A stretch of DNA of 64,000 nt from the NCBI GenBank assembly GCA_965208645.1, contig OZ242350.1, forward strand, positions 2,535,475 through 2,599,474, written 5' to 3'. The notes beneath the pieces were generated by a model. The model worked only from the letters and a program-made list of their open reading frames with translations. It was not told the DNA's origin and ran no database searches. Positions 1 through 59,673 of this stretch are shown one piece after another (the stretch's first letter is position 1; the number at the start of each line of letters is the position of its first letter). The translations under genes and the position numbers were made by a program. Source of the stretch: Dehalococcoidia bacterium. GTDB taxonomy: Bacteria; Chloroflexota; Dehalococcoidia; Lucifugimonadales; Lucifugimonadaceae.

Positions 1-423
1 TGACATGCGATCCTCCCAAGACCCCGCCGTGTGACAGAAACCGACTTTATCCGACCACCTTCCGAGTTCGGCATACGACCATCTTTCCCTGTCATACAAA
101 TACCCAAGAGCGCTAATATCGTACCCATTGCTCTTCGTCACGCTCTTGGGGGACTTGGGGATGAGAAGCACTTCGTGGTCGGTGCCGCTCACTGCATCTT
201 CATATCTCGGCAATTCTTGGAACTCTTTAACCTTGTCAAATTCAAGCGCACCTTTACATTCGACCAACACAACCGTTTTTCCTTTGAGGATGAAATCAGG
301 GTACCATCCGCCGTAGGTTTTCTGGGGTCTTTCCCATTCCCATCTATACTTGTCGAAGAGTGCCGAGCAAATTGCTTCATGCTCCGTATCGAACTCGCGC
401 TTCTTAAATTTCACCTTTTCCAT
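1..423 (-). CDS. partial CDS running off the left edge: PD-(D/E)xK nuclease, phage T7 endonuclease I / junction-resolvase-like
   Basis: I translated the minus strand from the ATG at 423: MEKVKFKKREFDTEHEAICSALFDKYRWEWERPQKTYGGWYPDFILKGKTVVLVECKGALEF... It stays open to position 1 (141 codons, no stop), so it is absent from the supplied track. The motif YPDF-x11-VECKG fits the D...ExK nuclease core. The opposite-strand track ORF 31..477 shows no recognisable features. Confidence 0.55.
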   Translation of the reverse strand, partial: MEKVKFKKREFDTEHEAICSALFDKYRWEWERPQKTYGGWYPDFILKGKTVVLVECKGALEFDKVKEFQELPRYEDAVSGTDHEVLLIPKSPKSVTKSNGYDISALGYLYDRERWSYAELGRWSDKVGFCHTAGSWEDRMS

Positions 424-497: not shown

Positions 498-579
498 TCT
501 GGTGGGGGAGGCGGGATTCGAACCCGCACGGCCTAAGCCACATGCTCCTAAGGCATGCGCGTCTACCATTCCGCCACTC
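498..579. repeat. 82-bp exact direct repeat, copy 1 (identical to 2599..2680); candidate att-type island boundary
   Basis: Base-by-base comparison with 2599..2680 (offset 2101) shows no mismatch. Identity breaks at 497/2598 and at 580/2681. Confidence 0.9.
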
Positions 580-583
580 GCCA
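500..583 (-). pseudogene. tRNA-Leu(UAG) remnant with a decayed 5' acceptor strand
   Basis: The 3' 80 nt are identical to the intact tRNA at 2601..2684. The 5' acceptor strand reads TGGCGAG instead of GGGGGAG, which gives 1-72 (T.C) and 4-69 (C.C) mismatches. Confidence 0.7.
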
Positions 584-672
584 ATGTCTAATAGTACTGC
601 CCGTCGGACATTCGCAGTCGTTCATCGCTCCTTGACGATGAGGCAGTCAATTGGTTTCCGAGTTTATGCGTT

Positions 673-1254
673 TTACGCACCGGGAGTGGTCTTTACTTCG
701 CCAGCATCGGCGAAACGGACTAGCTCATCGACAGCATTACACAGGCGACGGAACGACCTCGAGGCATGGAACGCCGCATCGATATCCATCGTCGCCGAAA
801 ACCGTACTTGGTCTTTCGTTTCCTTATACGTCAACCCCGATGCAACTCTACGGTTGAGCCATTGCTTTGCCCCGTTGTACTCCTCAGCGTCGCCGTTAAA
901 GTCTTTGTCAGATGCGAGAAACCAACTCTCGTACTCACGCTTGGCGCAAACTACGACTGTAGGAACGCCGACCGTGGTGGCACGAGCCCTATCCGCCAAT
1001 TCGATCCCCAACTCCTTTGGGCAATCGGCATCCGCGTCTACTAGCACAAGAATCGCTGCACAACCATCGGTGATCGTTGCGTACCCCAAAAAGTCTTCAA
1101 GTCGTCTGACGATTCCTCCCTTGCCTTTCGCCATTTTGGGTCGCAACACACCGATGTCGTAGCGATCGCTTCGTTCGTGGAGAATTCGCCGCAACAAAAC
1201 TGGCACCGCCGCCACATCGCCCGGACCTTCCACGATTGGCACGATAAACCGCAT
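673..1254 (-). CDS. DUF4276-like (Toprim-like) small protein
   Basis: Track ORF 673..1266, with the start trimmed to the ATG at 1254. The N-terminus is MRFIVPIVEGPGDVAAVPVLLRRIL (xVEGxxD/E motif) and there is an acidic LVLVDADADCP (DxD) motif. It begins about 9 nt downstream of the ATPase stop, or overlaps it by 4 nt if the TTG at 1266 is used. Confidence 0.65.
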   Translation of the reverse strand: MRFIVPIVEGPGDVAAVPVLLRRILHERSDRYDIGVLRPKMAKGKGGIVRRLEDFLGYATITDGCAAILVLVDADADCPKELGIELADRARATTVGVPTVVVCAKREYESWFLASDKDFNGDAEEYNGAKQWLNRRVASGLTYKETKDQVRFSATMDIDAAFHASRSFRRLCNAVDELVRFADAGEVKTTPGA

Positions 1255-1262
1255 CGAGGGTG

Positions 1263-2522
1263 TCAACTGCGCGGTACCAAACCTTCCATGCTGTGCAGTT
1301 CACCGCTAGTAAAAAGACCGTTCATCACCGCTTTCGCTTGTGCCTGCGAAACAGGCCCGACCTCAGTGCATCCGTCCCGCATCTCAACCGCTCTCAAAGA
1401 TTCGATCGGCAGTCGGTCGATGAGGTCAGGGCTGTGCGTAGTAGCCACTACCTGTGTTCGACTTGATGCTTCGACCATTACATCGGCAAGTACCGCGAGC
1501 GCACCGGGGTGTATCGTTAGCTCTGGCTCCTCAACTCCAACCAATGAATTGGGCACGTCTTGGTAAAAGGCCGTCAGTAACCCTAATAGGCGCACCGTGC
1601 CGTCAGATTCTTGAGTCAGATCGAACAGTGAGCCCGTACCGCCGTCTTCACCGACTTCGTGCCGCAACTTGACAACCAAGTATCCACCCGACTGGTCTAC
1701 GCGCAAGTCGTTTAATCCCGGCACGATTTGGTTCAGGCTATTTTTTATCTCTCCAAGGTATGGCGAATCCAACTTGACCATCTCGCTTAAGACTGACCCC
1801 AGGTTTTGCCCGTCCTCAACTAAGAGATGCGGGTTCATCAACTTTCGCGGTTCACGCATCGCGTCGGGAAACAGTCGGTAAAACTGCATCCCTCTCACGA
1901 ATTTCATAGCTTCGTCAACATCGCTTCCGATACCGCGGCCCATCAAATGCTGCGAACTGCGATTTTGCTCTATGGGACGGAAAAGGAAAAGCGCCCAAAA
2001 TGGCATTGCAAGTTCAGAATCGTCGAACACGTAATCGTTGAACAGATCGCCGTACAGATTATCGCGGAACCCTTTAGGTGTGACTGCAATGCCGCCTTTA
2101 ATCTCGAACTCAATCGGTTCCCAATTACTCGCGGCAGTTACTAGGGTACCGTGTTCCCTTTCTACGCGATAAACACCTTCCTGACTACTGATCTCGAACT
2201 CGTACCGCATCTCGAATTCGTCTTTGGCTACTTCGAAACCAACCTCGACGTTGCTGTGACAGCGCTGAGGATTCGTCATTCTGACCGCGTCAATCCCATG
2301 TCGAGAAGTCACAGCCGAATCGAGATTTCTATCGAGTGCGTCTTTGATGAAACGCAGGACGTCTAGCACGTTGCTCTTGCCGGACGCGTTCGGTCCAACA
2401 AGCACCGTCAACGGACCAAGTTCAAGGTCTAGGCTACGAATGCTCTTGAAGTTTCGAGCCCAGATCCTCGTCAAACGAAAATCTGATTTGTTTCGATTCG
2501 TCTGGTTTTGCATCGCACTCAT
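1263..2522 (-). CDS. ABC/SMC-type AAA ATPase (AAA_15/AAA_21-like)
   Basis: 419 aa. Walker A is GPNASGKSN near the N-terminus. The C-terminal VGVEEPELTIHP (Walker B) and ATTHSPDLI (H-loop) are typical of OLD/abortive-infection-type ATPases. Confidence 0.8.
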   Translation of the reverse strand: MSAMQNQTNRNKSDFRLTRIWARNFKSIRSLDLELGPLTVLVGPNASGKSNVLDVLRFIKDALDRNLDSAVTSRHGIDAVRMTNPQRCHSNVEVGFEVAKDEFEMRYEFEISSQEGVYRVEREHGTLVTAASNWEPIEFEIKGGIAVTPKGFRDNLYGDLFNDYVFDDSELAMPFWALFLFRPIEQNRSSQHLMGRGIGSDVDEAMKFVRGMQFYRLFPDAMREPRKLMNPHLLVEDGQNLGSVLSEMVKLDSPYLGEIKNSLNQIVPGLNDLRVDQSGGYLVVKLRHEVGEDGGTGSLFDLTQESDGTVRLLGLLTAFYQDVPNSLVGVEEPELTIHPGALAVLADVMVEASSRTQVVATTHSPDLIDRLPIESLRAVEMRDGCTEVGPVSQAQAKAVMNGLFTSGELHSMEGLVPRS

Positions 2523-2598
2523 CCCATCACAATCCTATCTTTTCGGTTCCTCTACGATTCGAACTTCAAGACGAAGGAACCGATGCAATTTCCCACTC

Positions 2599-2680
2599 TC
2601 TGGTGGGGGAGGCGGGATTCGAACCCGCACGGCCTAAGCCACATGCTCCTAAGGCATGCGCGTCTACCATTCCGCCACTC
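2599..2680. repeat. 82-bp exact direct repeat, copy 2
   Basis: Identical to 498..579. Confidence 0.9.
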
Positions 2681-2684
2681 CCCC
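2601..2684 (-). tRNA. tRNA-Leu (anticodon UAG), class II, CCA encoded
   Basis: Manual cloverleaf. Acceptor GGGGGAG/CTCCCCC, A73 and CCA. D arm GCG-GAATGGTAGA-CGC. Anticodon arm CATGC-CTTAGGA-GCATG. Long variable arm TGGCTTAGGCCGT. T arm GCGGG-TTCGAAT-CCCGC. Confidence 0.9.
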
Positions 2685-2803: not shown

Positions 2804-2849
2804 GTCTAAACCCCCTTCAATTCCCCCTTGGGCATCAAGGGGGAGGGTT
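2804..2849. repeat. 46-bp repeat family E (contains hairpin CCCCCTTG-GGCAT-CAAGGGGG)
   Basis: It matches 30535..30580 with one mismatch. Both copies lie just downstream of a family A unit. Confidence 0.85.
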
Positions 2850-9602: not shown

Positions 9603-10160
9603 ATGACGCACCACATCTGGTCACAGCTACGCGACGTCGCAGAGATGTTCATCATAACCGCGCTCGTGATCGTATTCATCCGCACCGTCGCCATTACCTA
9701 CACTGTAAACGGCCCGAGCATGGAGCCGACGTTCATGGAAAATCATCGCGTCTTGGTCAACCGATTCGGCGCGATCGGTTTCTGGGGTGTGTCGCTCTAC
9801 GGTCAACCGAACTTCGTATTCGCGGGTCCCGAACGCGGCGACATCATCGTTTTCGAACCGCAGCAGCCCGGAACCGAGAAAATCGTCAAACGCGTCATCG
9901 GCCTTCCCGGCGACAAAGTCGACATCCACAACGGGACCGTAATCGTCAATGACATCATGACTAGCTACACCGATTCCCACACCGCACCTAAGAACCATCT
10001 CGATTTTCCCATAATCGTGCCGCCCCACGAGTATTTCGTCCTGGGCGATAACCGCGACCAGTCCAACGACTCACGAAACTGGGGCTACGTCCCAACGGAA
10101 GACATCGTAGGTAAAGTCTGGCTGCTCTACTGGCCGTGGCGCAAAACCTCAACCTATTGA
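9603..10160 (+). CDS. lepB: signal peptidase I
   Basis: Catalytic Ser box NGPSMEPT, plus KRVIGLPGD and GDNRDQSNDSRNWGYV boxes. Confidence 0.9.
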   Translation: MTHHIWSQLRDVAEMFIITALVIVFIRTVAITYTVNGPSMEPTFMENHRVLVNRFGAIGFWGVSLYGQPNFVFAGPERGDIIVFEPQQPGTEKIVKRVIGLPGDKVDIHNGTVIVNDIMTSYTDSHTAPKNHLDFPIIVPPHEYFVLGDNRDQSNDSRNWGYVPTEDIVGKVWLLYWPWRKTSTY

Positions 10161-10544
10161 CACCGTCAAAAAGTGCGTCATTCCGATAGCCAGATTCATC
10201 TTCAACATAACGCTGCTGCTCCCAAGCACAGGAATCACCCTTTGACGTGTTCGCGAACCAAAGGCGGCGCGGCGAGCGAAGCGACGGCATAGGCGCGCTA
10301 CCGATTGGCGCTGTTGCAGTTACCCGTTAATCCCCGTCCGTGGTCCATCCTTGGCGGAAGTTCTACGCTGGATTCCCAATGCGCCGCAAACTGGTGCCGC
10401 CGGTCATTCATTAACACGTTGCTCTGCTTTGACGATGGTTTTCTTCCCTGGCTACCTTTCGGATTTCGGTGCTTGTCTCGAATTTATTTCTGATTCTTTC
10501 GGTAGAGAGGGAGATCGTTAAAACCACGCCCTAGCCATGTCAAT

Positions 10545-10805
10545 TCATCGCGATCGAAACGACGTAACGCGGTTCCACCATTTGTTGTCGCGCCCGTTCT
10601 CCATAAGTCTCTTTTCCACCTCCGGCGAAAGCTCAATTCCTTGTTCGCGGAGGTCCACCTTAATGCGTTCCATGGCTCGTTGCTCTCCAATTTTCTCACC
10701 ACGTTTTTCGCCTTTTGCGAATGCCTTTGCGATGGCTTTTTGCCTAGCCTGTTTACGGATCTCGGTTCGTGTTTCGAACAATTGCCTGACTCCTTCGATA
10801 ATCAT
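10545..10805 (-). CDS. hypothetical Lys/Glu-rich coiled-coil protein
   Basis: Track ORF only. It overlaps ORF 10753..10989 in another frame, so a frameshifted single gene is possible. Confidence 0.3.
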   Translation of the reverse strand: MIIEGVRQLFETRTEIRKQARQKAIAKAFAKGEKRGEKIGEQRAMERIKVDLREQGIELSPEVEKRLMENGRDNKWWNRVTSFRSR

Positions 10806-11088: not shown

Positions 11089-12654
11089 TCAAGCCGAAGT
11101 TTTGTGTCGGTACATCAACGCCTCTGCCAAATGGTGGTTCTCGATCAACGCCGTCTGCTCAAGATCCGCTATCGTCCGTGCAACCTTCAACACTCGGTGG
11201 CACGATCGCGCCGACATCCTCAGGTGTTTCATCGCGCTCTGCAACAACGATTTCGCGTCGTCGGACATCTTGCACGAATCCCAAACCTCAACCGGACCCA
11301 TCAGAGCATTCGACATCACGGTTGATCCCTGGAATCGTTCGTGTTGTAATTGAACCGCGACCATGATGCGCTCCCGCGCCGATGCGGACCCTTCTTCGAC
11401 CGGCGGCGTGATCAACTTCTCGTATTCGACCCGCGGAACGTCAACAAACATGTCAATGCGATCGATCAACGGTCCCGAGATTCGTCGCTGATATCGCGCT
11501 ACTGCAGGTTCGCCGCAAGTGCACGGCTGCTGCGAATCGCCGTGATAACCACACGGACAGGGATTCATTGCGCCCACCAGCATAAAACTCGCCGGGAACG
11601 TTGAACTTGTCCGAGCCCTGCTGATCGTTACCGTCCGGTCCTCGAGTGGTTGACGTAACGTCTCCAAAGTCGCATTCCCAAACTCCGGCAACTCATCGAG
11701 GAACAACACCCCACGGTGGCTGAGCGTCACCTCGCCCGGTCGTGGTATGCTCCCGCCGCCGATGAGTCCCGCATTGGAAATCGTGTAGTGCGGGGCTCGG
11801 AACGGCCGATGTGTGATCAATGGACTTCCCGAAGGCAGTAATCCGGTAACCGAATAGATCGTCGTGACCTCCAATGCCTCCTCGGCCGTCATCGGCGGCA
11901 AGATCGATGGCAGACACCGTGCCAACAGAGTCTTTCCGCACCCCGGTGCTCCCATCAAAACGATGTTGTGATTCCCAGCCGCCGCGATCTCCAACGCCCG
12001 TTTCGCTTGTTCCTGTCCGCGCACGTCGCGGAAATCGTATCCTGTCCTAACAGCAGGTATCCCGTCGAGATCAGGGATGCCACCACCTTGCACCGACGGT
12101 AGGTCTGCTTCGTCACGAAGATACTCTACGACTTGGCGCAAAGTTTCCACCGGTCGTATATCGATTCCAGGGACTAGAGACGCCTCCTTCGAGTTGACGC
12201 GCGGCACGAACGCGGTGTCGTACCCCCGCTCCTTGCCTTCGCGCAACATCGGCAACATCCCATGCGTCGTCCGCAACTTGCCGTCGAGCGCGAGTTCGCC
12301 CAAAAACAACGACTTGCTTACCGCATCCGGTATCTGTCCACTGCATACCAAGATTCCGATGGCGATCGGCAGATCGTAAGAAGGTCCCGTCTTCTTGATG
12401 TCCGCCGGTGCCAGTGAAACAGTGATTCGCCGCAACGGGAACTCCGCACCCGAATTTCTGATCGCCGCGCGCACTCGCTCTCGCGACTCCTGAACCGACG
12501 AATCGGGTAATCCGACGATGTTGAACCGGGGTACGCCCGGCGATATATCCACCTCAACCTCGACTAGCTGACCATCTACTCCATGAACTGCGCATGTGTT
12601 CGTCTTTGCCAACAATTTTTCGTCCTTTTCTTTTATAGTTATGCCCAAGGTCAC
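11089..12654 (-). CDS. comM: YifB/ComM family Mg-chelatase-like ATPase
   Basis: Lon-like N-terminal domain (VEVDISPGVPRFNIVGLPDSSVQESRERV), Walker A GAPGCGKT and LFLDELPEF; about 510 aa. These are the typical family hallmarks. Confidence 0.85.
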   Translation of the reverse strand: MTLGITIKEKDEKLLAKTNTCAVHGVDGQLVEVEVDISPGVPRFNIVGLPDSSVQESRERVRAAIRNSGAEFPLRRITVSLAPADIKKTGPSYDLPIAIGILVCSGQIPDAVSKSLFLGELALDGKLRTTHGMLPMLREGKERGYDTAFVPRVNSKEASLVPGIDIRPVETLRQVVEYLRDEADLPSVQGGGIPDLDGIPAVRTGYDFRDVRGQEQAKRALEIAAAGNHNIVLMGAPGCGKTLLARCLPSILPPMTAEEALEVTTIYSVTGLLPSGSPLITHRPFRAPHYTISNAGLIGGGSIPRPGEVTLSHRGVLFLDELPEFGNATLETLRQPLEDRTVTISRARTSSTFPASFMLVGAMNPCPCGYHGDSQQPCTCGEPAVARYQRRISGPLIDRIDMFVDVPRVEYEKLITPPVEEGSASARERIMVAVQLQHERFQGSTVMSNALMGPVEVWDSCKMSDDAKSLLQSAMKHLRMSARSCHRVLKVARTIADLEQTALIENHHLAEALMYRHKTSA

Positions 12655-12787
12655 AACTCACATTTATGAAATGATACATCTATGCTATTCATTGCAAGAT
12701 GTCGATGGCGAAATTTTTTGGAATTTTCACACATAATTTTCGCTAAGTTACTCCCAAACCGAAAATCCCCGCGCCCGATCCGCAAAA

Positions 12788-13705
12788 ATGAGCATCCGCT
12801 ACCAATCCGACGGTCACATCGCGGTCATCACACTTGACAACGCTCGTCGAGCCAACGCAATTGATAAGGCCCATGCGCTCGAGCTCGCTGACGCTTGGCG
12901 CAACGCTTGGGAGGATCGCGCGGTCAGAGCTATCGTCGTAACCGGGGAGGGTGACCGTCATTTCTGTGGCGGTCACGACCTGTCCCTGCGCGATGACGTC
13001 TCCGACGAAGAACACCACTTCCTGTCGTTGGAGCGCATCTTCCGACAACCCGCCGGTTACATCAACGGAATGCAATCTGGCATCGACGGTGGTATGGCCG
13101 ACCATTTCCCACGCATACACAAACCCGTCATCGCCGCCGTTAACGGCTGGGCTGTCGGCGCCGGACTCTACCTCCTACTTGCCTCCACCGATATCCGCAT
13201 CGCCGCCATCGGGCAAGCCAACTTCCGCTTCGGCCTGATTTCCCGTGGCTGGGTCGGCGCGGGTCCCGGAGCAACGCTCCTTCTCAAGCAACTTCGATAC
13301 GTCGATGCGATGAATATGCTCCTCGCCGACACAACGGTCAACGCCGAAGAAGCCGTCCGAATCGGTCTCGTCAATGAAGCGGTTCCGCCCGACCAACTCA
13401 TGGCTCGCGCCTTCGAGATCGCCCATCGCATCGCCGAAATGCCACCACTCGCCACCATCAAAATGAAGGAGTTCGTCCACCGATTCGCAGACCTACCGGT
13501 CGAACAGGCCTGGAACATCCAATCGTTGATCAACTCCCTCCTCCTTCACACAACGCAAGACGCCCAAGAAGGTCGAGATTCGTTCCTCGAACGCCGCGAC
13601 CCTACCTACACTGGCGAGTATTCCGGCCTAGAAGGCTTTTACGAGAACACATCCGACGAAGAACGCGCCCGTCTAGATGAACTCAAACGACAGATAGACT
13701 GGTAG
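12788..13705 (+). CDS. enoyl-CoA hydratase/isomerase (crotonase) family protein
   Basis: ITLDNARRANAI...VVTGEGDRHFCGGHDL...KPVIAAVNGWAVGAG is the crotonase fold signature. Confidence 0.8.
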   Translation: MSIRYQSDGHIAVITLDNARRANAIDKAHALELADAWRNAWEDRAVRAIVVTGEGDRHFCGGHDLSLRDDVSDEEHHFLSLERIFRQPAGYINGMQSGIDGGMADHFPRIHKPVIAAVNGWAVGAGLYLLLASTDIRIAAIGQANFRFGLISRGWVGAGPGATLLLKQLRYVDAMNMLLADTTVNAEEAVRIGLVNEAVPPDQLMARAFEIAHRIAEMPPLATIKMKEFVHRFADLPVEQAWNIQSLINSLLLHTTQDAQEGRDSFLERRDPTYTGEYSGLEGFYENTSDEERARLDELKRQIDW

Positions 13706-13738
13706 CCATAGAGGCACACCGAAGAGTCATCGTTAACT

Positions 13739-13909
13739 ATGGACCGTTGGAATTACGCACGCGACGAACATCCGCCCTACTGCACCTGCGTCAAGTGCGT
13801 CGAGGATCGGAAAGACGGCAAGAGCCCGCGTGCGCGAAGATCGGCGCATTCAGGCAACCCGATTGAACGCTTACTCTCTAGGTTGAAGCGTTTTTTCGGC
13901 GGGCACTGA
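13739..13909 (+). CDS. hypothetical 56-aa protein with a CxCxxC element
   Basis: My own reading: MDRWNYARDEHPPYCTCVKCVEDRKDGKSPRARR... It is below the track size cut-off and there is no further support. Confidence 0.2.
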   Translation: MDRWNYARDEHPPYCTCVKCVEDRKDGKSPRARRSAHSGNPIERLLSRLKRFFGGH

Positions 13910-14170
13910 ACACCCTCGCTCGGTTCATTCGCGGCCCAACATCCACCACCAAATCCATCCGAACAGCGCGCCTAAAACCACGCACACTGGCAACGACGCG
14001 ATCACGATCACTTCAGTTCCCGCCGCGTCGAACTGAAACCACAATGCCAGACTGAAGCCGATCGCCACGCAGGCTCCAACTACGGCCCCCAACAATATGT
14101 AACGTTTGACGCTCACTTCGTCAATGTTAATCCAAGGCTTGCCCTGTACAATTTCGCTGCGCAAAGGTAG

Positions 14171-15925
14171 GTGACACTGATGACCAACTCCAACGGCAAA
14201 GTTCTTCGCAGCGAGGCATGGTTCGGCCCCCGCGATCTCGAGGGTTTCCTTCACAGATCCGGTCTTAAGAACCAAGGTTGGGACGAAGATTCCTTCGTTG
14301 GGAAACCCGTCATCGGCATCGCCAACTCGTGGAGCGAAGCCACACATTGCAACTCCCACCTCCGCGTCATTGCTGAACACGTAAAACGCGGTGTCATTGC
14401 CGCCGGAGGCTTCCCCCTCGAATTCCCGACCATCTCCCTCGGGGAGTTCTTTCTCACTCCCACGTCCATGCTCTACCGCAACCTCATGGCCATGGATGTC
14501 GAGGAAATGATCCGCGGTCTGCCCATCGACGGCGTCGTCCTGCTGTCGAACTGCGACAAAACCACTCCAGCAATGCTCATGGGTGCCGCCTCTGCAGATC
14601 TCCCAGCAATCATCGTCACTGGAGGGCCGCAACTCAAAGGCAACTGGCGAGGCGAAGAGCTCGGTTCATGCACCGATTGTCGCCGGTACTGGTCAGAACT
14701 GCGCGCTGGCACCATAACCCAAGCCGAATACGACTCGATGGAAGAAGCCATCTATCGCTCGCCCGGCCACTGCATGGTCATGGGCACCGCCAGCACGATG
14801 TCGGTCATATGCGAAGCCCTCGGCATGACGCCACCCGGCGGTGCGGCCATCCCCGGCGCCGATTCCCGGCGCCGGGTATTCGCAGAACGCGCCGGTACCG
14901 TCGCCGTAGATCTCGTTCGGCGAAAAACTCGACCGTCCGAACTCTTGACCGAAGGAGCCTTCGAAAACGCCGCCCTCGCCTTGCTCGCCTTGGGCGGATC
15001 CACAAACGCCATAATTCATCTCACCGCCATCGCTGGTCGGGCAGGCATCGAACTACCCCTCGCCAAGTGGGAAGAACTCTCAGAAAGAGTCCCGGTAATT
15101 GCCAACCTCAAACCCTCCGGCAAATACCTGATGGAAGACTTCTTCTACGCTGGCGGAGCTCCTGCATTCTTCAAGAAAATACTGCACTTGTTGAACCAAG
15201 ACTGCGTAAACGTAAACGGCAAGACCCTCGCCCAAAACGTTGCCGATGCCGAATGTCATGACGACAACGTAATCCTCGATCCCGGCCACGCCTTGTACCC
15301 GGATGGCGGGATTTCAATCCTCAAAGGCACGCTTGCACCCGACGGCGCGGTGATCAAACGCTCCGCAGCATCTTCTGACCTATTGCAACACACCGGCCGA
15401 GCCGTCGTGTTCTCCAGTCCGGCAGACCTCCATCGACGCATCGACGACCCGGATCTCGATGTAACTGAAAACGACATCCTCGTGATGCAAGGCGCTGGTC
15501 CCATCGGCGGCCCGGGCATGCCCGAAGCTGGTTTCATGCCGTTGCCACGCAAAATCCTCGAACAGGGGATTCGCGACATGGTCCGCATCTCCGACGCCCG
15601 CATGAGCGGCACTGCATTCGGAACCGTCGTCCTCCACGTGGCACCCGAGTCCGCCATCGGAGGTCCGCTAGCCCTCGTCCGAAATGGCGACATGATTTCC
15701 CTTGACGCCGATGGTGGTCGCCTCGACCTCTTAGTCGACAACGCCGTATTAAGAAGGCGGCAAGCTGACTTCGAAACGTCCGAAGCAGTCACCCAAATGC
15801 AACCCGAACGCGGTTACATGCACGTATACAACCGCCACGTCATGCAAGCCCAACACGGCTGCGATTTTGATTTCGCCGTTGGCAGCACACCCGTTGCGAC
15901 GCATGTTGAGATGGAGGGACACTGA
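14171..15925 (+). CDS. IlvD/Edd family dehydratase (probably a sugar-acid dehydratase)
   Basis: LRSEAWFGPRDLEGFLHRSGLKNQG...IGIANSWSEATHCNSHL...SNCDKTTPAML. This N-terminus and the 584-aa length resemble the arabonate/xylonate dehydratase branch. The neighbouring genes are sugar-acid genes. Confidence 0.8.
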   Translation: MTLMTNSNGKVLRSEAWFGPRDLEGFLHRSGLKNQGWDEDSFVGKPVIGIANSWSEATHCNSHLRVIAEHVKRGVIAAGGFPLEFPTISLGEFFLTPTSMLYRNLMAMDVEEMIRGLPIDGVVLLSNCDKTTPAMLMGAASADLPAIIVTGGPQLKGNWRGEELGSCTDCRRYWSELRAGTITQAEYDSMEEAIYRSPGHCMVMGTASTMSVICEALGMTPPGGAAIPGADSRRRVFAERAGTVAVDLVRRKTRPSELLTEGAFENAALALLALGGSTNAIIHLTAIAGRAGIELPLAKWEELSERVPVIANLKPSGKYLMEDFFYAGGAPAFFKKILHLLNQDCVNVNGKTLAQNVADAECHDDNVILDPGHALYPDGGISILKGTLAPDGAVIKRSAASSDLLQHTGRAVVFSSPADLHRRIDDPDLDVTENDILVMQGAGPIGGPGMPEAGFMPLPRKILEQGIRDMVRISDARMSGTAFGTVVLHVAPESAIGGPLALVRNGDMISLDADGGRLDLLVDNAVLRRRQADFETSEAVTQMQPERGYMHVYNRHVMQAQHGCDFDFAVGSTPVATHVEMEGH

Positions 15926-15934
15926 ATGTAGGGA

Positions 15935-17608
15935 TCAACCAAACTGAACCCCCTGATCCGCTAGATCAATCATGTCCGGTTCGCGATTGGCGAATGCGGT
16001 CAACATGACTGGCAAATCCGGATATTTTCCGGAGAAGTAATCCTCGATCGTAAACAGTTGAAGCTTCGGATACGTTCGTCCAGCGATTTCGACCGTTCCG
16101 ACGGCGAGGTCACTGCGCACACCAGATGTAGTCGAATTGTTGTCCATCACTATTAGGACACCCATGATCGCTCCGCTGTCGGCCATGCTGCCCAACATCT
16201 CGCGTACAACACTCGCACCGACGTTTTTGCCGCCTTTGACTTGCGCCATCACCAAATGGCGTTGTCCATTATCGCGAGCGTAACCGCGCCCATCAATCCC
16301 GCGATCCCCCGTTTTCCGTTCATTTGGCAACATCCCGCGCAGTCGCGAAACCGCCCATGCTTCAAATTGAAACGGGTCCCGATCGAATAAGTCACGGGCC
16401 GCGTCCATGTCTTCAGGTCGTCCGATCACGTTCGGCTGTTCATTCAAACGCTCGCGAAATCGGAATTCAACCACTGCGATGGCAAGGTGTGTGATGTCGA
16501 TTCCGATCCAAGGGCGGCCTGAAGCTTGCGCGACATGCAGCGTAGTACCGCAACCGCAATATGGGTCCATCACCAATCCATCCTTCGGACAAGCCACTTC
16601 GACCAGTTGCTTTAACAACCCTTCCGGCTTTTGCGTTGGATAACCTAAATACTCCTTGCCCTTGTTGTAGTTCGTGAAACCGATCGGGTCGAGTACCAGG
16701 TTCTGCGGACCGGAAGGCGTGTCCGCTGCCGCGTATCGTTTCAATCCTGGCCAAAACCCTCGTTGAGGGTGATGAATCAATCCAGCATCATCCAACGCGT
16801 CCAACCTGTCGTGGACACCAACGATTGCCCGATAGTCGGGAATGAAATTCTCTTCGATCCACTCTGCGTAACTGCTGGTTTTAGGGATCGCCCAATGGCG
16901 ATTCCTAGCGTCAACATCGTAACCACTCCATGGTTTGCCGCTCTCCCCTCCCCGTTTTTCGGCTGCTGTGAGGTCTCCAGTTCTAAACCGACCAAATTCG
17001 TCCGAAGACGGATAGCGTTTTGCCAGCTCCGATTCTGTGCGACTGACGGATATTGCTTGACCTCGCCAATACGAGACGTCGCCCTTCGCGTACAGAAAAA
17101 TCGTATCGACTATCCGACCAAATCGTTTCGCATCGTTGTGCGCGGTAGCCCGACGCCAATAAACTGCGTTTCGATAATTTGTGGCTCCGAAAACCGCGTC
17201 CAAAAGCAACTTCACGTGATGACTAGCGGTGTCGTCACAATGCAGATACAGAGAACCTGATTGCTTCAATAGCCGCCGCATTTCATGAAGCCTCGGAGCG
17301 AGATGGCAAAGATATGCGAACATGCCGGAACGGCCCAGCATAGTCTCAAATCCTTGGATCACGGTTGCCAATTCGCCACCAGCCGCTAACGCAGAGTCAC
17401 GGTCCTTAACGGCCTGTTGCCCCCAACGCCAAGTGTCCTCGAATGCGCGCGCTTGAGCCGACGCATCTCCGAGACCAGATACAAAAAGTTGGTTGTAGGT
17501 TTGGTTCGAATTGAACGGCGGATCAAGATAAATCAGGTCAACCGAATCGGATGGCCATTGACGCATCCAGTCAAAGTTGTCACCGTAGTACAGGGAGTTT
17601 GGAAGCAT
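15935..17608 (-). CDS. beta-class N6/N4 DNA methyltransferase fused to a C-terminal Mrr-like PD-(D/E)xK domain
   Basis: Motif IV (IYLDPPFNS) precedes motif I (MDPYCGCGTTLHVA), which is the beta-class order. The C-terminus TGDRGIDGRGY...LVMAQVKGGKNVGASVVREMLG resembles the Mrr catalytic core. The start is trimmed to MLPNSLYYGDN (17608). Confidence 0.75.
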   Translation of the reverse strand: MLPNSLYYGDNFDWMRQWPSDSVDLIYLDPPFNSNQTYNQLFVSGLGDASAQARAFEDTWRWGQQAVKDRDSALAAGGELATVIQGFETMLGRSGMFAYLCHLAPRLHEMRRLLKQSGSLYLHCDDTASHHVKLLLDAVFGATNYRNAVYWRRATAHNDAKRFGRIVDTIFLYAKGDVSYWRGQAISVSRTESELAKRYPSSDEFGRFRTGDLTAAEKRGGESGKPWSGYDVDARNRHWAIPKTSSYAEWIEENFIPDYRAIVGVHDRLDALDDAGLIHHPQRGFWPGLKRYAAADTPSGPQNLVLDPIGFTNYNKGKEYLGYPTQKPEGLLKQLVEVACPKDGLVMDPYCGCGTTLHVAQASGRPWIGIDITHLAIAVVEFRFRERLNEQPNVIGRPEDMDAARDLFDRDPFQFEAWAVSRLRGMLPNERKTGDRGIDGRGYARDNGQRHLVMAQVKGGKNVGASVVREMLGSMADSGAIMGVLIVMDNNSTTSGVRSDLAVGTVEIAGRTYPKLQLFTIEDYFSGKYPDLPVMLTAFANREPDMIDLADQGVQFG

Positions 17609-17718
17609 TTCGACGATGCAATAATCCTCGGAGTTGATACAGATCAACTATACGGACATTTTCGAATTCGTCACGAGGAAATGGCAGGTTATTCAGACGA
17701 TCTAGCGGTTCCAGCGCT

Positions 17719-18732
17719 CTACGGTGTAACCGCATCCGCAGGTATCAACCCTTCGGCCTTCATCTCAGCCCACACGTCGCCCGGTATCGTCTGCCCTACC
17801 AGCGCGAAGTTCTCCTCCAACTCCGGCACTGATTGCGCGCCAGGAACTACGGTCCCAACGACCGGATGCGCCAGCACGAACTGCAAGGCGGCAGCCTTCA
17901 AATCCACATCGTGCCGACGGCAAACCGCATCTAACATGCGCGCCCGTTCGACGAGATGCGGCGGCGCGATTTCGTAGTTGAATGTCACATCGCCATCGAG
18001 GTCGCGAGCCAGAATGCCGCTGTTGTAGGGCCCGCCGACGATAATCTTAACGTCTCGCTCGACAGATAACGGCAGGAACTCGGGATAGGCATCGTGGTCA
18101 AGCAGGGTGTATCGTCCTGCCAGTAACACCGCATCAATGTCGAACCGACGTATGAACGCCGCCGGCATCTGCCACTCGTTCATGCCGCACCCGATCGCCT
18201 TGATCACGCCCTGTTCTCGCAGATCGATCAACGTCGGAAACGCCTCCTCAACCGCCTGTTTCTCACCATACGGCTGTGTATCCGGGTCATGAACCAACAC
18301 AATCTCGACATGATCCGTACGCAATCGCTCCAAACTATCTTCGATCGACCGCATCACATCGTTCCGCGTCCAACTATCCACGCTGTAGTGGTCGGCGAAA
18401 TTGTCTGGCGATTCTGCTGCGGTCATGCCGCCCTCATACACCTCCAACACGCGTCCAACCTTCGTAGAAATAACGTAGCTGTCGCGGTCGATGCCTGCGA
18501 GCGCCGCGCCGTACCTGACCTCACTCCTTCCTGAACCATACAGCGGTGCCGTGTCGAAATAGTTGATGCCGAGTTCATGGGCCCGTCTGATGATCCGACC
18601 AGCCTCGTCGCTCGCCGTCCCTCCGAACACCCCGTCGCCAAGCACCATGCCGCTCAGAGGCGCGCCGCCCAATCCGAGTTGCGTAACCTCGACGCCGTGT
18701 TTTCCGATTGCGACTTTATCTAGCGGGTTCAA
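17719..18732 (-). CDS. aldo/keto reductase
   Basis: LGLGGAPLSG...INYFDTAPLYGSGRSE...VHDPD are AKR motifs. Confidence 0.85.
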   Translation of the reverse strand: MNPLDKVAIGKHGVEVTQLGLGGAPLSGMVLGDGVFGGTASDEAGRIIRRAHELGINYFDTAPLYGSGRSEVRYGAALAGIDRDSYVISTKVGRVLEVYEGGMTAAESPDNFADHYSVDSWTRNDVMRSIEDSLERLRTDHVEIVLVHDPDTQPYGEKQAVEEAFPTLIDLREQGVIKAIGCGMNEWQMPAAFIRRFDIDAVLLAGRYTLLDHDAYPEFLPLSVERDVKIIVGGPYNSGILARDLDGDVTFNYEIAPPHLVERARMLDAVCRRHDVDLKAAALQFVLAHPVVGTVVPGAQSVPELEENFALVGQTIPGDVWAEMKAEGLIPADAVTP

Positions 18733-21097: not shown

Positions 21098-21190
21098 GGA
21101 GGGTGCCGTCGAGGCGACGAACGGGACTGCAACTCCCGGGGTTGCTAGACAGATCCTAGCATCGCGGTTCGATTCCGCCACCCTCCGCCA
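21098..21190 (+). tRNA. non-canonical 93-nt tRNA (allo-tRNA / tRNA-Sec-like fold, anticodon GCA, discriminator G, CCA encoded)
   Basis: Manual fold. 8-bp acceptor 21098-21105/21179-21186. D stem 21107-21111/21115-21119. Anticodon stem 21122-21126/21134-21138 with loop CTGCAAC (U33, GCA at 21129-21131, A37). Variable arm 21139-21163 with a 6-bp stem. 4-bp T stem GCGG/CCGC around the TTCGATT loop. G at 21187, then CCA. Confidence 0.75.
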
Positions 21191-30414: not shown

Positions 30415-30642
30415 GGGAAATTTCCGAAGGACAAAGGGGGCCTACCCCATCGGGTGCTGTGCACAACTACCGTCATTCCGGCGAAAGCCGGAATCCAGAG
30501 GGGCCGGGCAACGGAGTGCAAAGCGAAACGCCAAGTCTAAACCCCCTTTAATTCCCCCTTGGGCATCAAGGGGGAGGGTTGTGCACAGCACCCCATCGCG
30601 CTGTAGCTGTATGGACAGGTTTCAAGCCTGCCTCTACCAACC
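30415..30642. repeat. composite cluster of nested repeat elements (families D, A, E and F) with a 16-bp flanking inverted repeat
   Basis: GGAAATTTCCGAAGGACAAAGGGGG is family D. GGGTGCTGTGCACAAC (30452-30467) pairs with GTTGTGCACAGCACCC (30577-30592). Family A lies at 30472-30501, family E at 30535-30580, and a degenerate GGACAGGTTTCAAGCCTGCCTCTACCAACC at 30613-30642. Confidence 0.75.
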
Positions 30643-35802: not shown

Positions 35803-36480
35803 ATGCCCCGCAACTACAAAATGCACGTCTGGGAGGTCCAGCAAGCCGCCCAAGCAATCCTCGAGTTCACCGACGGAAAGACTCTCCACGACTACGCCAC
35901 CGATCGAATCCTCAGATCCGCTGTCGAACGCCAAATCAACAAAATCGGCGGCGCGTTAGCGCGACTCATCGTCAACGACGACCCTAACGTCCGACGCATC
36001 GGCGGTTACGGCGGTACCCTTGGTTGGGGCAAAATGCTTGAACCCTTTGACCCTGTCGAAGAACGCGAGGTCTGGGACTTCATTCAAGACAATCTGCCCG
36101 AATTGCTTAAGGAAACAACTGCAGTTCTCGAAACAGAATCCGTTGATCAGCCAGCCAGCGCAAAACCCCAACGAAGAAAAATCGTCCCTTTAGTAGCTAG
36201 TCGCAAACAACAGATAGGAAACCTCTGCCGACGCCACCACGTCAAGCGCCTCGACGTCTTCGGTTCAGCCGTCAACGGCGACTTCCGCCCCGACGAAAGC
36301 GACATTGACTTCCTAGTCCAATTCGACGACTCTCCCGAAGGCCAGCAATTCGAAACCCGCTTCCAACTCACCAAAGAACTCAAAGCCCTATTCGGACGAT
36401 CAGTCGATGACTCTGCCATCCAAAACCCCTACTTACGAGACGAGGTCGATCAGACTAAAGAACAAATCTACAAGAGCTAA
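35803..36480 (+). CDS. fusion protein: N-terminal DUF86/HepT-like HEPN domain (Rx4-6H motif not detectable) + C-terminal MNT-type nucleotidyltransferase domain
   Basis: The N-terminal part ILRSAVERQINKIGGALARL...EVWDFIQDNLPELL follows the DUF86 pattern but has no R-x4-6-H. The C-terminal part RLDVFGSAVNGDFRPDESDIDFLVQF carries the GS...D.D NTase motif. Confidence 0.65.
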   Translation: MPRNYKMHVWEVQQAAQAILEFTDGKTLHDYATDRILRSAVERQINKIGGALARLIVNDDPNVRRIGGYGGTLGWGKMLEPFDPVEEREVWDFIQDNLPELLKETTAVLETESVDQPASAKPQRRKIVPLVASRKQQIGNLCRRHHVKRLDVFGSAVNGDFRPDESDIDFLVQFDDSPEGQQFETRFQLTKELKALFGRSVDDSAIQNPYLRDEVDQTKEQIYKS

Positions 36481-36489
36481 CAGTCTCCC

Positions 36490-36540
36490 TCCCCTTCGCA
36501 AAGCGAAGGGGACGCGGAGCGAAGCGAACGCAGGGGATGC
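36490..36540. repeat. family C repeat element (hairpin TCCCCTTCGCAAAGCGAAGGGGA + GCGGAGCGAAGCGAACGCAGGGGATGC)
   Basis: Near-identical to 35492-35542. It explains the spurious N-terminal extension of track ORF 36537..37997. Confidence 0.85.
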
Positions 36541-36656
36541 TCGAAGATAGGCGGCTGGGTTACACCAGATTGAGGGTTTTAGTTCGATTTGCTATCCTTT
36601 ATAATTGCGGTCGCTCCGCCGTCCATTTAACGACCACGCCAAAGAAACGACTTAAC

Positions 36657-37997
36657 ATGCAAATCCGCGAAATCCGAGTTCAAGGTCTGTTCGGCCGTTT
36701 CACTCACGAAATTGCGTTCGAGCCAGATGATCGAATCAAGATCATTTACGGACCAAACGGCGTGGGAAAGACCGTGACCTTGCGAATCATCAACGATCTT
36801 TTCAACCGCTCACTCTTGAGTTTGTTGCGGATCCCCTTCCAACGAATCGAGGTTACATTCGACAACAATAATCACCTTGAAGTAGTCAGAACAAACAACG
36901 AAGCTGCTGAAGCCCATCAGTCATATGCTCCTTCGACCGTTTTGAATTTCATTTTCAATGACAACGAACCATATATGCTTCAGTTAAGCGATTTGAATGA
37001 ATTTCTGAATCCGCGCTTGATCGATGCCGCGATACCAAACATTCACCGTATCGGCCCAAACGACTGGATGGACTTCGAAACCGATGAAAGATATGATATC
37101 GAAGATCTTTGGGAACTCTACGCCGATGTTCTCCTTGAACAAGCGTCGGCACAGCAACAGGAATTACCAGCCTGGCTCGACGATCTCCGTGAATCAGTCC
37201 CAGTACAATTTATCGATACCGAACGATTGTTCACAACTCCAGCCAGCGTCAGACCGGGGACAGTCGCAAGGCGCCGACACGTCCCAGCTTTCAACCGCAC
37301 GGTCACTAAGCATTCAACAGACCTAGCCAATCGTATCCGCCAAGTTTTGACCAAATATGGCAATGAATCCCAATCACTCGATAGTTCATTTCTTGAAAGA
37401 TTAATACAGCGACCAGCGGATTCACAAGTATCACTGGGAGAACTCCAAGCACTTTGGGGGAAAAACGAATCGAAAAGATTGTTAATTGAAGCAACCGGGA
37501 TGTTGCTACCTGAACAAGGACAACTAGAATCGGAGTCGCTAGGTTCGATCGACGAATCCAATAGGGCTGTTTTGGAACTTTATGCGCTTGATGTTGCCGA
37601 CAAACTGACGGTTTTCGACGAGTTATACCCACGAGTCAACATGATGATCGAAATCTTGCAGTCGTTGTTCGAGTACAAACAGATCAAGGTAAGTTCCAAC
37701 GGATTTGACATTACATCCGACGGTAGCAATCTTGACTTACGTCATCTATCATCAGGCGAACAACATGAACTTGTCTTGATATACGATCTGCTATTCAATG
37801 TCAGACATAACTCATTGATTTTGATTGACGAACCAGAGTTGTCTTTGCACGTTGCTTGGCAGGAGCAAATGTTAAAATCCTTCCAACGAATTGGCGACCT
37901 TTCCAAATGTCACTTCCTTCTAGCCACTCACTCGCCTCAAATCATAGATGATCGATGGGAACTCACGGTCGAACTCAAAGGGTCGGCCGATTCATGA
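36657..37997 (+). CDS. AriA-like ABC/AAA_15-type ATPase (PARIS-like system, component A)
   Basis: MQIREIRVQGLFGRFTHEIAF...IIYGPNGVGKT (Walker A), LILIDEPELSLHVAWQ (Walker B) and LLATHSPQII. An ATGA overlap links it to the next gene. The start is trimmed to the ATG at 36657. Confidence 0.75.
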   Translation: MQIREIRVQGLFGRFTHEIAFEPDDRIKIIYGPNGVGKTVTLRIINDLFNRSLLSLLRIPFQRIEVTFDNNNHLEVVRTNNEAAEAHQSYAPSTVLNFIFNDNEPYMLQLSDLNEFLNPRLIDAAIPNIHRIGPNDWMDFETDERYDIEDLWELYADVLLEQASAQQQELPAWLDDLRESVPVQFIDTERLFTTPASVRPGTVARRRHVPAFNRTVTKHSTDLANRIRQVLTKYGNESQSLDSSFLERLIQRPADSQVSLGELQALWGKNESKRLLIEATGMLLPEQGQLESESLGSIDESNRAVLELYALDVADKLTVFDELYPRVNMMIEILQSLFEYKQIKVSSNGFDITSDGSNLDLRHLSSGEQHELVLIYDLLFNVRHNSLILIDEPELSLHVAWQEQMLKSFQRIGDLSKCHFLLATHSPQIIDDRWELTVELKGSADS

Positions 37998-38800
37998 CTC
38001 GAGAAAACCCTCACGCGATAGCAAACTATATCCGCATGATGCGATCCCGATTTGAGGGAGTGTTTCTGGTCGTTGAAGGATATCACGATTCTCAGTTGCT
38101 TCGTCAATTCGTACATGAAAACAATTGCAAACTCAAAATCGCCCATGGTAAGGCTGAAGTTTTACAGGTTCTAGGTATTTTGAACGATTATCAAACCACT
38201 GGGGTTTTAGGCATAATAGATGCCGATTTCGATAGGATTGAATGCCAGTGCCGCGCTGTTGAAAATGTCGTTTCACCTGAATGCCATGATATGGACGCTA
38301 TGTTAGTCCAGTCCGGTGCATTGAGATCAATCTTGATAAATTACGGAAGTCCGGATAAGTTAGGAGCTTTAGCCCATGATCCGTTAAGCGAGCTCTATGA
38401 AGGTGCTCGCAAAATCGCCGCTCTCAGACTTTATTCAGAACGAAATGGGCTGAGATTGAAATTCAACGGAATCCGATACAGTCGTTTTGTAGATTCCGTG
38501 ACGCTTCAAGTTAACATTCCGCAATTGGTTCAGGTAGTTGCTAACAATTCACAAAACACACAGATCGACATTCCAAATATCGTATCCGAAATCAACATGA
38601 TTCAACAGCAAGGGTACTCAGACGTTGAGACTTGCGCAGGAAGGGATTTAATCTCGCTATTGTCAATTGGGCTAAGACGCAGATTTGGTAGTGTCAAGAA
38701 CCACAATATAGTTGCGCCTGACGAAATCCGCAAATATCTTCGCATGGGATTTCATAGAAGCGAATTCGAAGTTTCCCAACTTTATTCCTCGATTATGTAA
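37994..38800 (+). CDS. AriB-like DUF4435/Toprim-like protein (PARIS-like system, component B)
   Basis: FLVVEGYHDSQLL (xVEGxxD) and LGIIDADFDRIE (DxD) motifs. The start codon overlaps the upstream stop (ATGA at 37994-37997). Confidence 0.7.
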   Translation: MTRENPHAIANYIRMMRSRFEGVFLVVEGYHDSQLLRQFVHENNCKLKIAHGKAEVLQVLGILNDYQTTGVLGIIDADFDRIECQCRAVENVVSPECHDMDAMLVQSGALRSILINYGSPDKLGALAHDPLSELYEGARKIAALRLYSERNGLRLKFNGIRYSRFVDSVTLQVNIPQLVQVVANNSQNTQIDIPNIVSEINMIQQQGYSDVETCAGRDLISLLSIGLRRRFGSVKNHNIVAPDEIRKYLRMGFHRSEFEVSQLYSSIM

Positions 38801-59348: not shown

Positions 59349-59673
59349 AGGTCACGGTTGCCGGTTACCTTTGGACGTGCTACCGGCATTGCACATCCGC
59401 ACCTCAGATTTTCGGTGCCCGATAAGTGCCGCTGAGGGCGACTCCTACCGGACATCGCGGCTGATTAAGCAGCTGCGAGGGCGACTTCTCGTTCGCCGTT
59501 TGTGTTTTTGCCCGTTTTATCGTGGTCAGGCACCACGACACGCAACCTTGCGGTACGCTCCCTGTCGAATCCACTCGTCCCCTTACGTTTACTGATTATA
59601 CCTGACAATCAGTGATCCATAATCGTTGAACTACCCCTGTTCTTGTATCATTGCGGCTCTACTCTACTCACCG

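Follow-up and report, generated by a model that had tools for sequence, protein, structure and literature searches.

The 64,000-nucleotide (nt) stretch of Dehalococcoidia DNA analysed here, referred to as the window, carries near its left end a two-gene cassette of ~1.9 kb directly downstream of a tRNA-Leu(tag) gene. The cassette encodes an ATP-binding cassette (ABC)-type ATPase and a small DUF4276 protein, and its profile matches assign it to HEC-01, a candidate defence family. The two genes, each an open reading frame (ORF) with Pfam and PADLOC matches, and their main motifs are as follows (residues in amino acids, aa).

1263..2522, minus strand: HEC-01A, a 419-aa ABC-type (AAA_21/AAA_15) ATPase, ATG start
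673..1266, minus strand: HEC-01B, a 197-aa DUF4276 protein, Toprim-like putative nuclease effector, TTG start
2370..2396, minus strand: Walker A (P-loop) of the ATPase, GPNASGKSN, aa 43-51
1419..1610, minus strand: signature ESDGT (aa 305-309), Walker B with catalytic Glu VGVEEPE (aa 328-334) and H-loop TTHSPD (aa 361-366) of the ATPase, from the translation and the homolog alignment
1878..2156, minus strand: hypervariable middle segment of the ATPase, aa 123-215, a candidate specificity or sensor insert, from identity comparison among relatives
1228..1230, minus strand: E13 codon of the small protein, VEG motif (IVPIVEGPGD), predicted metal-binding Glu after beta-1, from conservation and model
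1030..1038, minus strand: D77-A-D79 codons of the small protein, DxD motif (LVLVDADADCP) at the end of beta-3, from conservation and model

Database homologs mark both ORFs as real genes rather than chance ORFs: 3937 were found for the ATPase at E ≤ 1e-10 and 365 for the small protein, almost every one of the latter with DUF4276. The genes overlap by 4 nt in the sequence TTGA, formed by the TTG start of the small gene (1266-1264) and the TGA stop of the ATPase gene (1265-1263), and the small gene is translationally coupled to the ATPase gene. An in-frame ATG at 1254 (MRFIV...) is an alternative start, which would give a protein of 193 aa and an intergenic gap of 8 nt. A scan of the cassette for sigma-70 promoters and terminators returned nothing above chance. 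The original prediction for this locus, which was made from the letters of the sequence, had described a 419-aa ATPase with the motifs GPNASGKSN, VGVEEPE and TTHSPD, followed by a ~193-aa partner that carries VEG and DxD motifs and either lies ~10 nt behind the ATPase stop or overlaps it by 4 nt through a TTG start. All of these features were found as described: the key ATPase residues are invariant in 38 homologs, and the motifs of the small protein are conserved in 47.

The ATPase matched the Pfam families AAA_21 (2.1e-33) and AAA_15 (6.5e-19). The small protein matched DUF4276 (PF14103), the family suggested for it in the original prediction, with 37.1 bits against a gathering cut-off of 30.2 and over profile positions 1-191 of 192, and DUF4276 was matched by all 47 aligned homologs. 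Among the PADLOC models, the ATPase matched HEC-01A (PDLC04178) at 1.1e-91 and 305.9 bits, with residues 13-418 on profile positions 5-383 of 399, and the small protein matched HEC-01B (PDLC04196) at 4.5e-48, with residues 5-184 on profile positions 1-193 of 197. These two matches were far stronger than those to the AriA, AbiLi, mad3, Old and GajA models. The AriA models were matched by the ATPase at 3.7e-32 and mad3 at 7e-24, and the matches to Old and GajA were restricted to its N-terminal P-loop region. The sole notable NCBIfam match of the pair was that of the ATPase to MAD3 (3e-31), which was sub-threshold with 108.9 bits against a cut-off of 420; the RecF model (TIGR00611) scored 29.1 bits against a cut-off of 172, and no NCBIfam match was found for the small protein. 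The original prediction had left it undecided whether the pair falls in a named family, and the Pfam and PADLOC runs now place it in HEC-01. As judged by these profiles, the window pair is a member of a catalogued candidate family, neither unnamed nor new.

The catalytic motifs of the ATPase are intact and strictly conserved. In the alignment of 38 homologs, G43, N45, A46, S47, G48, K49, S50 and N51 of Walker A were invariant, as were E305, S306, G308 and T309 of the signature, E331, E332 and P333 of Walker B, and T362, H363, S364 and P365 of the H-loop. This conservation shows the protein to be, as far as motifs can tell, a catalytically competent ATPase. Its closest solved relatives by sequence are OLD (6p74, 6e-15), PtuA (8ee4, 8e-11), GajA (~5e-9) and AriA (3e-4), and no close solved structure was found in the comparison with PDB sequences. 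Between the conserved ends lies a segment of a very different character. Identity among relatives was 26-58% in aa 123-215, compared with 58-94% in the N-terminal part and 72-88% in the C-terminal part, and blastn alignments with syntenic relatives were interrupted at about 1890-2155, which corresponds to the same segment. Payne et al. (bioRxiv 10.1101/2024.01.29.577857) proposed that inserts in ABC ATPases set specificity, and the variable segment falls in the region where they placed these inserts. Residues 123-215 are therefore a natural candidate for the sensor surface or specificity determinant of the ATPase. Such hypervariability would be expected of a sensor engaged in an arms race, which is an indirect indication of its role.

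In the small protein, the acidic residues expected of a metal site are conserved. E13 was at least 90% conserved in one homolog alignment (A2) and invariant in another (A4); in the 47 homologs, D77 was invariant and D79 at least 90% conserved. The homolog alignments also showed G14, G16, E113 and W115 to be invariant and D17 to be at least 90% conserved, and an SRSFRRL-type motif spans S169-L175, in which R170, S171, F172 and R174 are invariant. The four acidic residues E13, D77, D79 and E113 are thus invariant or at least 90% conserved, in keeping with the conserved acidic residues that the original prediction had expected across homologs, and by this measure the predicted effector would be catalytically competent. 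An AlphaFold2 model of the small protein was obtained with a mean predicted local distance difference test score (pLDDT) of 92.9 and a predicted template modelling score (pTM) of 0.90. Its elements are ordered beta1(6-12)-alpha1-beta2-alpha2-beta3(69-77)-alpha3-beta4(103-108), and the C-terminal part beyond them is helical. In the model E13 comes after beta1 and the DxD motif closes beta3, which is where Toprim domains carry such residues.

Profile comparison connected DUF4276 with the effector family of PARIS. Using hhalign, we compared DUF4276 with an alignment of 60 DUF4435/AriB-like sequences seeded from the window's own second system (described below), and obtained a probability of 59% (E 9e-5); a 79-sequence DUF4276 alignment gave 46% (E 2e-4). 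In both runs VEGxGD was aligned on VEGxxD, DAD on DAD and E113 on the Glu of HDLE, with the acidic motifs in register, and E13 fell on E41 of the DUF4435 profile. The DUF4435 profile itself matched the Toprim enzyme RNase M5 (E 0.015) and recovered no AriB in the PDB. At the level of Pfam, OLD-like_TOPRIM was matched sub-threshold by 11 of the 47 DUF4276 homologs, and DUF4435 weakly by two. The best neighbour of the model in BFVD was an RloB-like protein (probability 1.0, TM-score 0.50). A 2025 paper on Menshen treats DUF4276 and RloB as divergent members of the Toprim superfamily and identifies Mad4 of MADS as a DUF4276 homolog. The small protein is likely a Toprim-like metal-dependent nuclease, to judge from the register of its motifs, the moderate hhalign similarity and the published analyses.

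HEC-01 stands for "Hma-embedded candidate 01". In the description by Payne et al. (10.1101/2024.01.29.577857), an ABC ATPase is paired with a TOPRIM-like protein, which has the same metal site as OLD of B. pseudomallei. The window pair agrees with HEC-01 in having two adjacent co-oriented genes, full-length PADLOC A and B matches and the conserved acidic metal-site residues; it differs in standing alone at a tRNA-Leu hotspot instead of being embedded in Hma. To our knowledge, Hma embedding is not required for PADLOC to detect HEC-01. Membership in four better-known groups, namely PARIS, OLD/Gabija, MADS and RecF/RecR, was rejected. PARIS likewise has a split ABC ATPase and a small Toprim-type effector, and the E...DxD...E residues of DUF4276 and DUF4435 are in register. 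However, the window effector belongs to DUF4276 and showed no match to AriB in PADLOC or to DUF4435 in Pfam, and the ATPase matches solved AriA at 3e-4 only. The small protein had been predicted to differ from the AriB-like protein at 37994-38800 of the window, and it does: the latter is a DUF4435 protein that matches AriB of PADLOC. OLD and GajA also pair an ABC ATPase with a Toprim domain and are among the closest solved ATPases, but there the two are fused, whereas here they are encoded by two genes with no adjacent GajB-like helicase. MADS has an AAA_21-type ATPase (Mad3) and a DUF4276 partner (Mad4), but the window ATPase falls short of the MAD3 cut-off and neither a methylase nor a Mad6-8 core is adjacent. 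RecF/RecR was rejected on the sub-cut-off RecF score. RloB-like proteins (PF13707), which are partners of RloA/AAA_21 ATPases in type I restriction-modification and anticodon-nuclease loci and occur as Menshen NsnC-C domains, include the best structural neighbour of the small protein; they form a separate Pfam family from DUF4276, and RloB was matched at the sequence level by 2 of the 47 homologs only.

The distribution of the pair was examined through a genome scan with a single pattern, which yielded 488 relatives, 80 loci of which were fetched for context counts. The ATPase homolog lay directly upstream of the DUF4276 gene in 76 of the 80 loci, in line with the co-localisation expected by the original prediction; the four exceptions were a contig end, a locus without an ATPase match, an ATPase 4 kb away and a split ATPase. 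The closest relatives were found in metagenome-assembled genomes of Dehalococcoidia, and the others in further Chloroflexota including Anaerolineae, Acidobacteriota, Armatimonadota, Proteobacteria and more. No neighbour family was constant: the most frequent one occurred in at most 12 loci. At five loci the pair was flanked by a DUF1156 methylase resembling HmaB on one side and a DUF499 ATPase resembling HmaC on the other, as in the Hma-embedded arrangement, and some other loci had assorted defence-like neighbours. About 70 loci were stand-alone with intact genes. Plasmid copies of the small protein numbered only three, all distant and on Streptomyces megaplasmids, and no PHROGs match was found for it. 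The two-gene pair is the conserved unit of HEC-01. It is also a functional unit, because the genes overlap by 4 nt, the ATPase gene is upstream in nearly all loci and the neighbours vary.

The cassette is bounded by two tRNA copies, and the features of its surroundings are as follows (L002 and L015 are loci of related genomes).

2601..2684, minus strand: intact tRNA-Leu(tag) with a perfect 7-bp acceptor stem (ARAGORN; Rfam tRNA 63.7 bits)
500..583, minus strand: degenerate second tRNA-Leu(tag), an att-like repeat bounding the cassette (ARAGORN; Rfam 49.2 bits; acceptor-stem mismatches at pairs 1-72 and 4-69)
1-423, minus strand: edge ORF MEKVKFKKREFD..., which runs past the left end of the window; complete 197-aa orthologue at L015 10842-11435
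L002 8613-11532, L015 8583-11535, window 500-583 and 2601-2684: tandem array of up to three tRNA-Leu(tag) units separating small cassettes

The two copies in the window share an 82-nt exact direct repeat (498-579 and 2599-2680), which begins near tRNA position 5 and extends 2-3 nt beyond the CCA. The two HEC-01 genes are alone between the repeats, with no helicase gene there, and beyond the tRNA copies come a GH32 gene to one side and, to the other, an ORF of 197 aa that is unrelated; the pair has no methylase, Hma or MADS core gene next to it. The GC content is about 0.50-0.55 at 1-2600, compared with about 0.6 to the right.

The same site is occupied in related genomes. In six of them (L002-L006 and L015), the tRNA-side flank is 70-93% identical at the DNA level and the cassette sits at the same tRNA, with two or three tRNA copies in five of the six. 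Orthologous first tRNA copies were found in these six and in the metagenome contig L081, and second copies in relatives are degraded as in the window. In L002 and L015 a second cassette, which encodes the 197-aa protein, follows, and then a third tRNA copy. A conserved AAGTAC[CT]AT lies about 10-15 nt upstream of every tRNA unit, including the degenerate ones, so that the repeated unit seems to include a promoter-like element besides the att core. The 197-aa orthologue of the edge ORF had no match in Pfam, PADLOC or PHROGs; by eye, its stretch "PDF.L...VLVECKG" looks like a PD-(D/E)xK nuclease motif. Past the array, L015 encodes at 11659-18250 a 584-aa Mrr_cat type IV restriction endonuclease, a pentapeptide-repeat and FRG protein (PDC-S15), and a small type II restriction endonuclease with an N6/N4 methylase. 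L081 has different genes after its ATPase gene and then the same SDR-DUF1801-aldolase backbone. Since L015 carries and L081 lacks these defence genes between the same backbone genes, the neighbourhood contains at least two variable defence spots. Judged by sequence, the ATPase of L081 is followed by two small ORFs that look like a HigBA-type pair.

The original prediction had regarded the pair as the sole cargo of a tRNA-flanked insertion. This holds literally for the window, but the cassette is one unit of a larger variable, integrase-less defence hotspot common to related Dehalococcoidia-like genomes. No integrase was found in the cassette, and none was recognisable among the ORFs of at least 90 aa in the 9 kb past the L015 array, where six ORFs were compared with Pfam, which gave Mrr_cat, FRG/pentapeptide, DUF1801 and N6_N4_Mtase and left two without a match, and the SDR-like and aldolase-like ones were assigned by sequence only. 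To look for an empty tRNA-Leu site, metagenome contigs were scanned with an exact 48-nt sequence; the one locus returned, L081, is occupied. The same 1.9-kb cassette (window 657-2543, 76% identity) was also found in L001, at another site without tRNAs. The two-gene cassette presumably moves by recombination through the tRNA repeats.

We regard the pair, with reasonable though not high confidence, as a stand-alone HEC-01 member in which the ATPase serves as sensor or regulator of a Toprim-like nuclease effector, located in a tRNA-Leu defence hotspot. The published account of PARIS describes, in outline, a sequestered effector that is freed upon trigger binding and then cleaves tRNA. By analogy with PARIS, OLD and Gabija, an oligomer of the ATPase would bind and restrain the DUF4276 effector. 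A cue derived from an invader may be sensed by the ATPase through the hypervariable insert, and ATP binding or hydrolysis would then release or activate the metal-dependent nuclease, which may cut nucleic acid (DNA or tRNA/RNA) and so stop the infection or the infected cell. We infer that the window locus acts in defence, and the support is indirect: pairs are embedded in Hma at five loci, defence genes lie in the L015 hotspot, one HEC-01 representative is protective, mad3 and mad4 affect MADS defence, and the ATPase insert is hypervariable. The protective representative comes from a cold-seep study, in which E. coli B carrying it was protected from one or more of the phages T7, T5 and T4. In P. 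aeruginosa, deletion of mad3 or mad4 lowers MADS defence. The original prediction, a candidate sensor-ATPase and Toprim-effector defence module analogous to PARIS and OLD, is supported by the PADLOC HEC-01A and HEC-01B matches and by this literature.

Several observations weigh against this interpretation. The representative of HEC-01 examined by Payne et al. (10.1101/2024.01.29.577857) gave no protection against the phages tested, no phage-borne copy of the small protein was found, and housekeeping genes (SDR, sulfatase, XdhC) are neighbours at many loci. The substrate, the trigger and the formation of a complex are drawn purely from analogy. In addition, the effector gene shows signs of decay in close relatives. 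In L015, the closest relative, whose ATPase is 96% identical to that of the window, the DUF4276 gene is frameshifted into two overlapping ORFs (10001-10593), and L081 has the tRNA and an intact, 83%-identical ATPase but no DUF4276 gene (region 1152-2700). These changes could mean that HEC-01 is dispensable, could be real pseudogenisation or could reflect (long-read) assembly error. The fold of the small protein raises a further difficulty. In Foldseek searches of the PDB, no match to the full-length model reached E ≤ 1e-3 and its top 50 contained no Toprim entry; nor did a solved Toprim appear among the top 50 for the core (residues 1-125, modelled separately without the C-terminal helices, pLDDT 84). 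The best PDB neighbours were generic alpha/beta sandwiches and flavodoxin-like folds, such as lumazine synthase (TM-score 0.57, E about 2e-3). A hidden Markov model search of PDB sequences with the DUF4276 profile gave chance-level matches only, with no Toprim, and the hhalign probabilities between DUF4276 and DUF4435 reached only 46-59%. The likeness to Toprim-type nucleases noted in the original prediction is thus upheld by the motifs, their register and the moderate hhalign similarity, but not by recovery of solved Toprim structures with Foldseek.

The loss or frameshift of the effector gene with retention of the ATPase in L081 and L015 is the order of decay that would be expected if the small protein were toxic. 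We considered that the pair might be an addiction module similar to toxin-antitoxin (TA) systems, in which the DUF4276 nuclease is a toxin checked by the ATPase and the main effect is stabilisation of the island. Pfam labels AAA_21 as "putative AbiEii toxin, Type IV TA system", one tested HEC-01 did not protect against phages, and the cassette occupies a variable hotspot beside other selfish-looking genes, including the HigBA-like pair in L081 judged by sequence. However, the Hma embedding and the one positive phage assay favour defence, and the hypervariable insert of the ATPase is better explained by recognition of changing invaders. The boundary between TA and abortive infection is also blurred, so that this explanation is not truly exclusive of defence. 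On balance, we consider a purely selfish module unlikely.

Similarly, the pair could be an orphaned accessory module of a methylation-based system, either Mad3/Mad4 of MADS or Hma, that is unable to act alone. The PADLOC mad3 and NCBIfam MAD3 matches of the ATPase, the identification of Mad4 as a DUF4276 homolog in the Menshen paper, the need for both mad3 and mad4 in full MADS defence and the five Hma-like embedded loci are compatible with such an origin. The score against MAD3 (109 bits) is nevertheless far from the cut-off, and the small protein is without an NCBIfam match. Moreover, the neighbours in the window are tRNA copies, GH32 and a 197-aa ORF rather than an adjacent methylase or a Hma or MADS core, most of the 80 loci are stand-alone with intact genes, and a stand-alone HEC-01 protected E. 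coli. An orphaned module therefore seems to us improbable.

The repeated tRNA units at the locus raise a more speculative possibility. The tRNA-Leu(tag) locus may be an integron-like array for cassette exchange without a recombinase, in which the tRNA unit would serve as a handle for homologous recombination that captures and swaps small defence cassettes (HEC-01, the 197-aa protein and the Mrr-like restriction endonuclease), and might also provide the downstream cassette, which runs in the same direction, with a promoter or a processing signal. In a bolder variant, the DUF4276 effector would cleave tRNA as AriB of PARIS does, and would have a functional link with the neighbouring tRNA copies. 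A functional link with tRNA is opposed by the context counts, in which tRNA flanks occur in only 6 of the 80 loci (the syntenic relatives) plus the ATPase-only L081, and by the cassette without tRNAs in L001. We give this array, together with a tRNA-directed effector, little credence. Finally, a housekeeping DNA-repair pair analogous to RecF/RecR, which are an ABC ATPase and a small Toprim protein and to which the architecture and the weak matches of the ATPase to the N-termini of RecF, SMC and Rad50 would point, is highly implausible in view of the RecF score of 29 bits against 172, the patchy distribution across phyla with variable context, the tRNA hotspot with its lower GC content, the gene decay in close relatives, the hypervariable insert, and the fact that all strong PADLOC matches of the ATPase are to defence-system ATPases.

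The stand-alone HEC-01 interpretation adds no new system class. HEC-01 already has a name, PADLOC models, a structural discussion in the literature and two published tests for protection, which gave conflicting results. It is abundant in environmental genomes, as shown by the 488 relatives in our genome scan and by a cold-seep survey in which it was among the 12 most abundant system types. From a Dehalococcoidia-like genome, the window locus contributes a clean example of the family in a minimal, stand-alone form of 1.9 kb, together with evidence that the conserved, mobile unit consists of the two genes alone. It also offers a sharply bounded hypervariable ATPase segment (aa 123-215), an obvious candidate for the part that determines specificity. 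The locus is of value for annotation and for the choice of constructs and mutants in work on ABC-ATPase/Toprim defence, and the remaining interest is in the mechanism of HEC-01, the variable segment and the tRNA-repeat cassette array.

Elsewhere in the window, a second ABC-ATPase/Toprim system and its upstream neighbour were annotated as follows.

36537-37997, plus strand: 486-aa AAA_15/AAA_21 ATPase (PADLOC AriA 1.7e-27)
37955-38800, plus strand: 281-aa DUF4435 protein of the same system (PADLOC AriB 7.7e-18)
35803-36480, plus strand: 225-aa fusion of a HepT-like N-terminus and an NTP_transf_2 (MNT) domain, directly upstream of the second system (PADLOC PDC-S09)

By its profile matches, the second system (36537-38800) is PARIS-like, with a DUF4435 protein only distantly similar to the E. 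coli AriB of known structure.

A GC-rich hairpin element, CCCCCTTGGGCATCAAGGGGGAGGG, is present in two exact 25-nt copies in the window (2823-2847 and 30554-30578, plus strand), with 0 expected by chance. Copies were also found in L001, L005 and L015, and imperfect copies flank the HEC-01 cassette in L001. The 49-nt hairpin at 2804-2852 was considered as a boundary of the cassette and rejected as a dispersed intergenic repeat similar to repetitive extragenic palindromes (REP-like). Two further RNA features were recorded. ARAGORN called a tRNA-Cys(gca) of 93 nt at 21098-21190 (plus strand), which is unusually long and was not reported by the Rfam tRNA model at its gathering threshold; the call may be spurious, or the element may be tRNA-like or contain an intron. 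A tmRNA gene lies at 59232-59582 (minus strand; Rfam 139.5 bits) and encodes the tag peptide GEREVALAAA.

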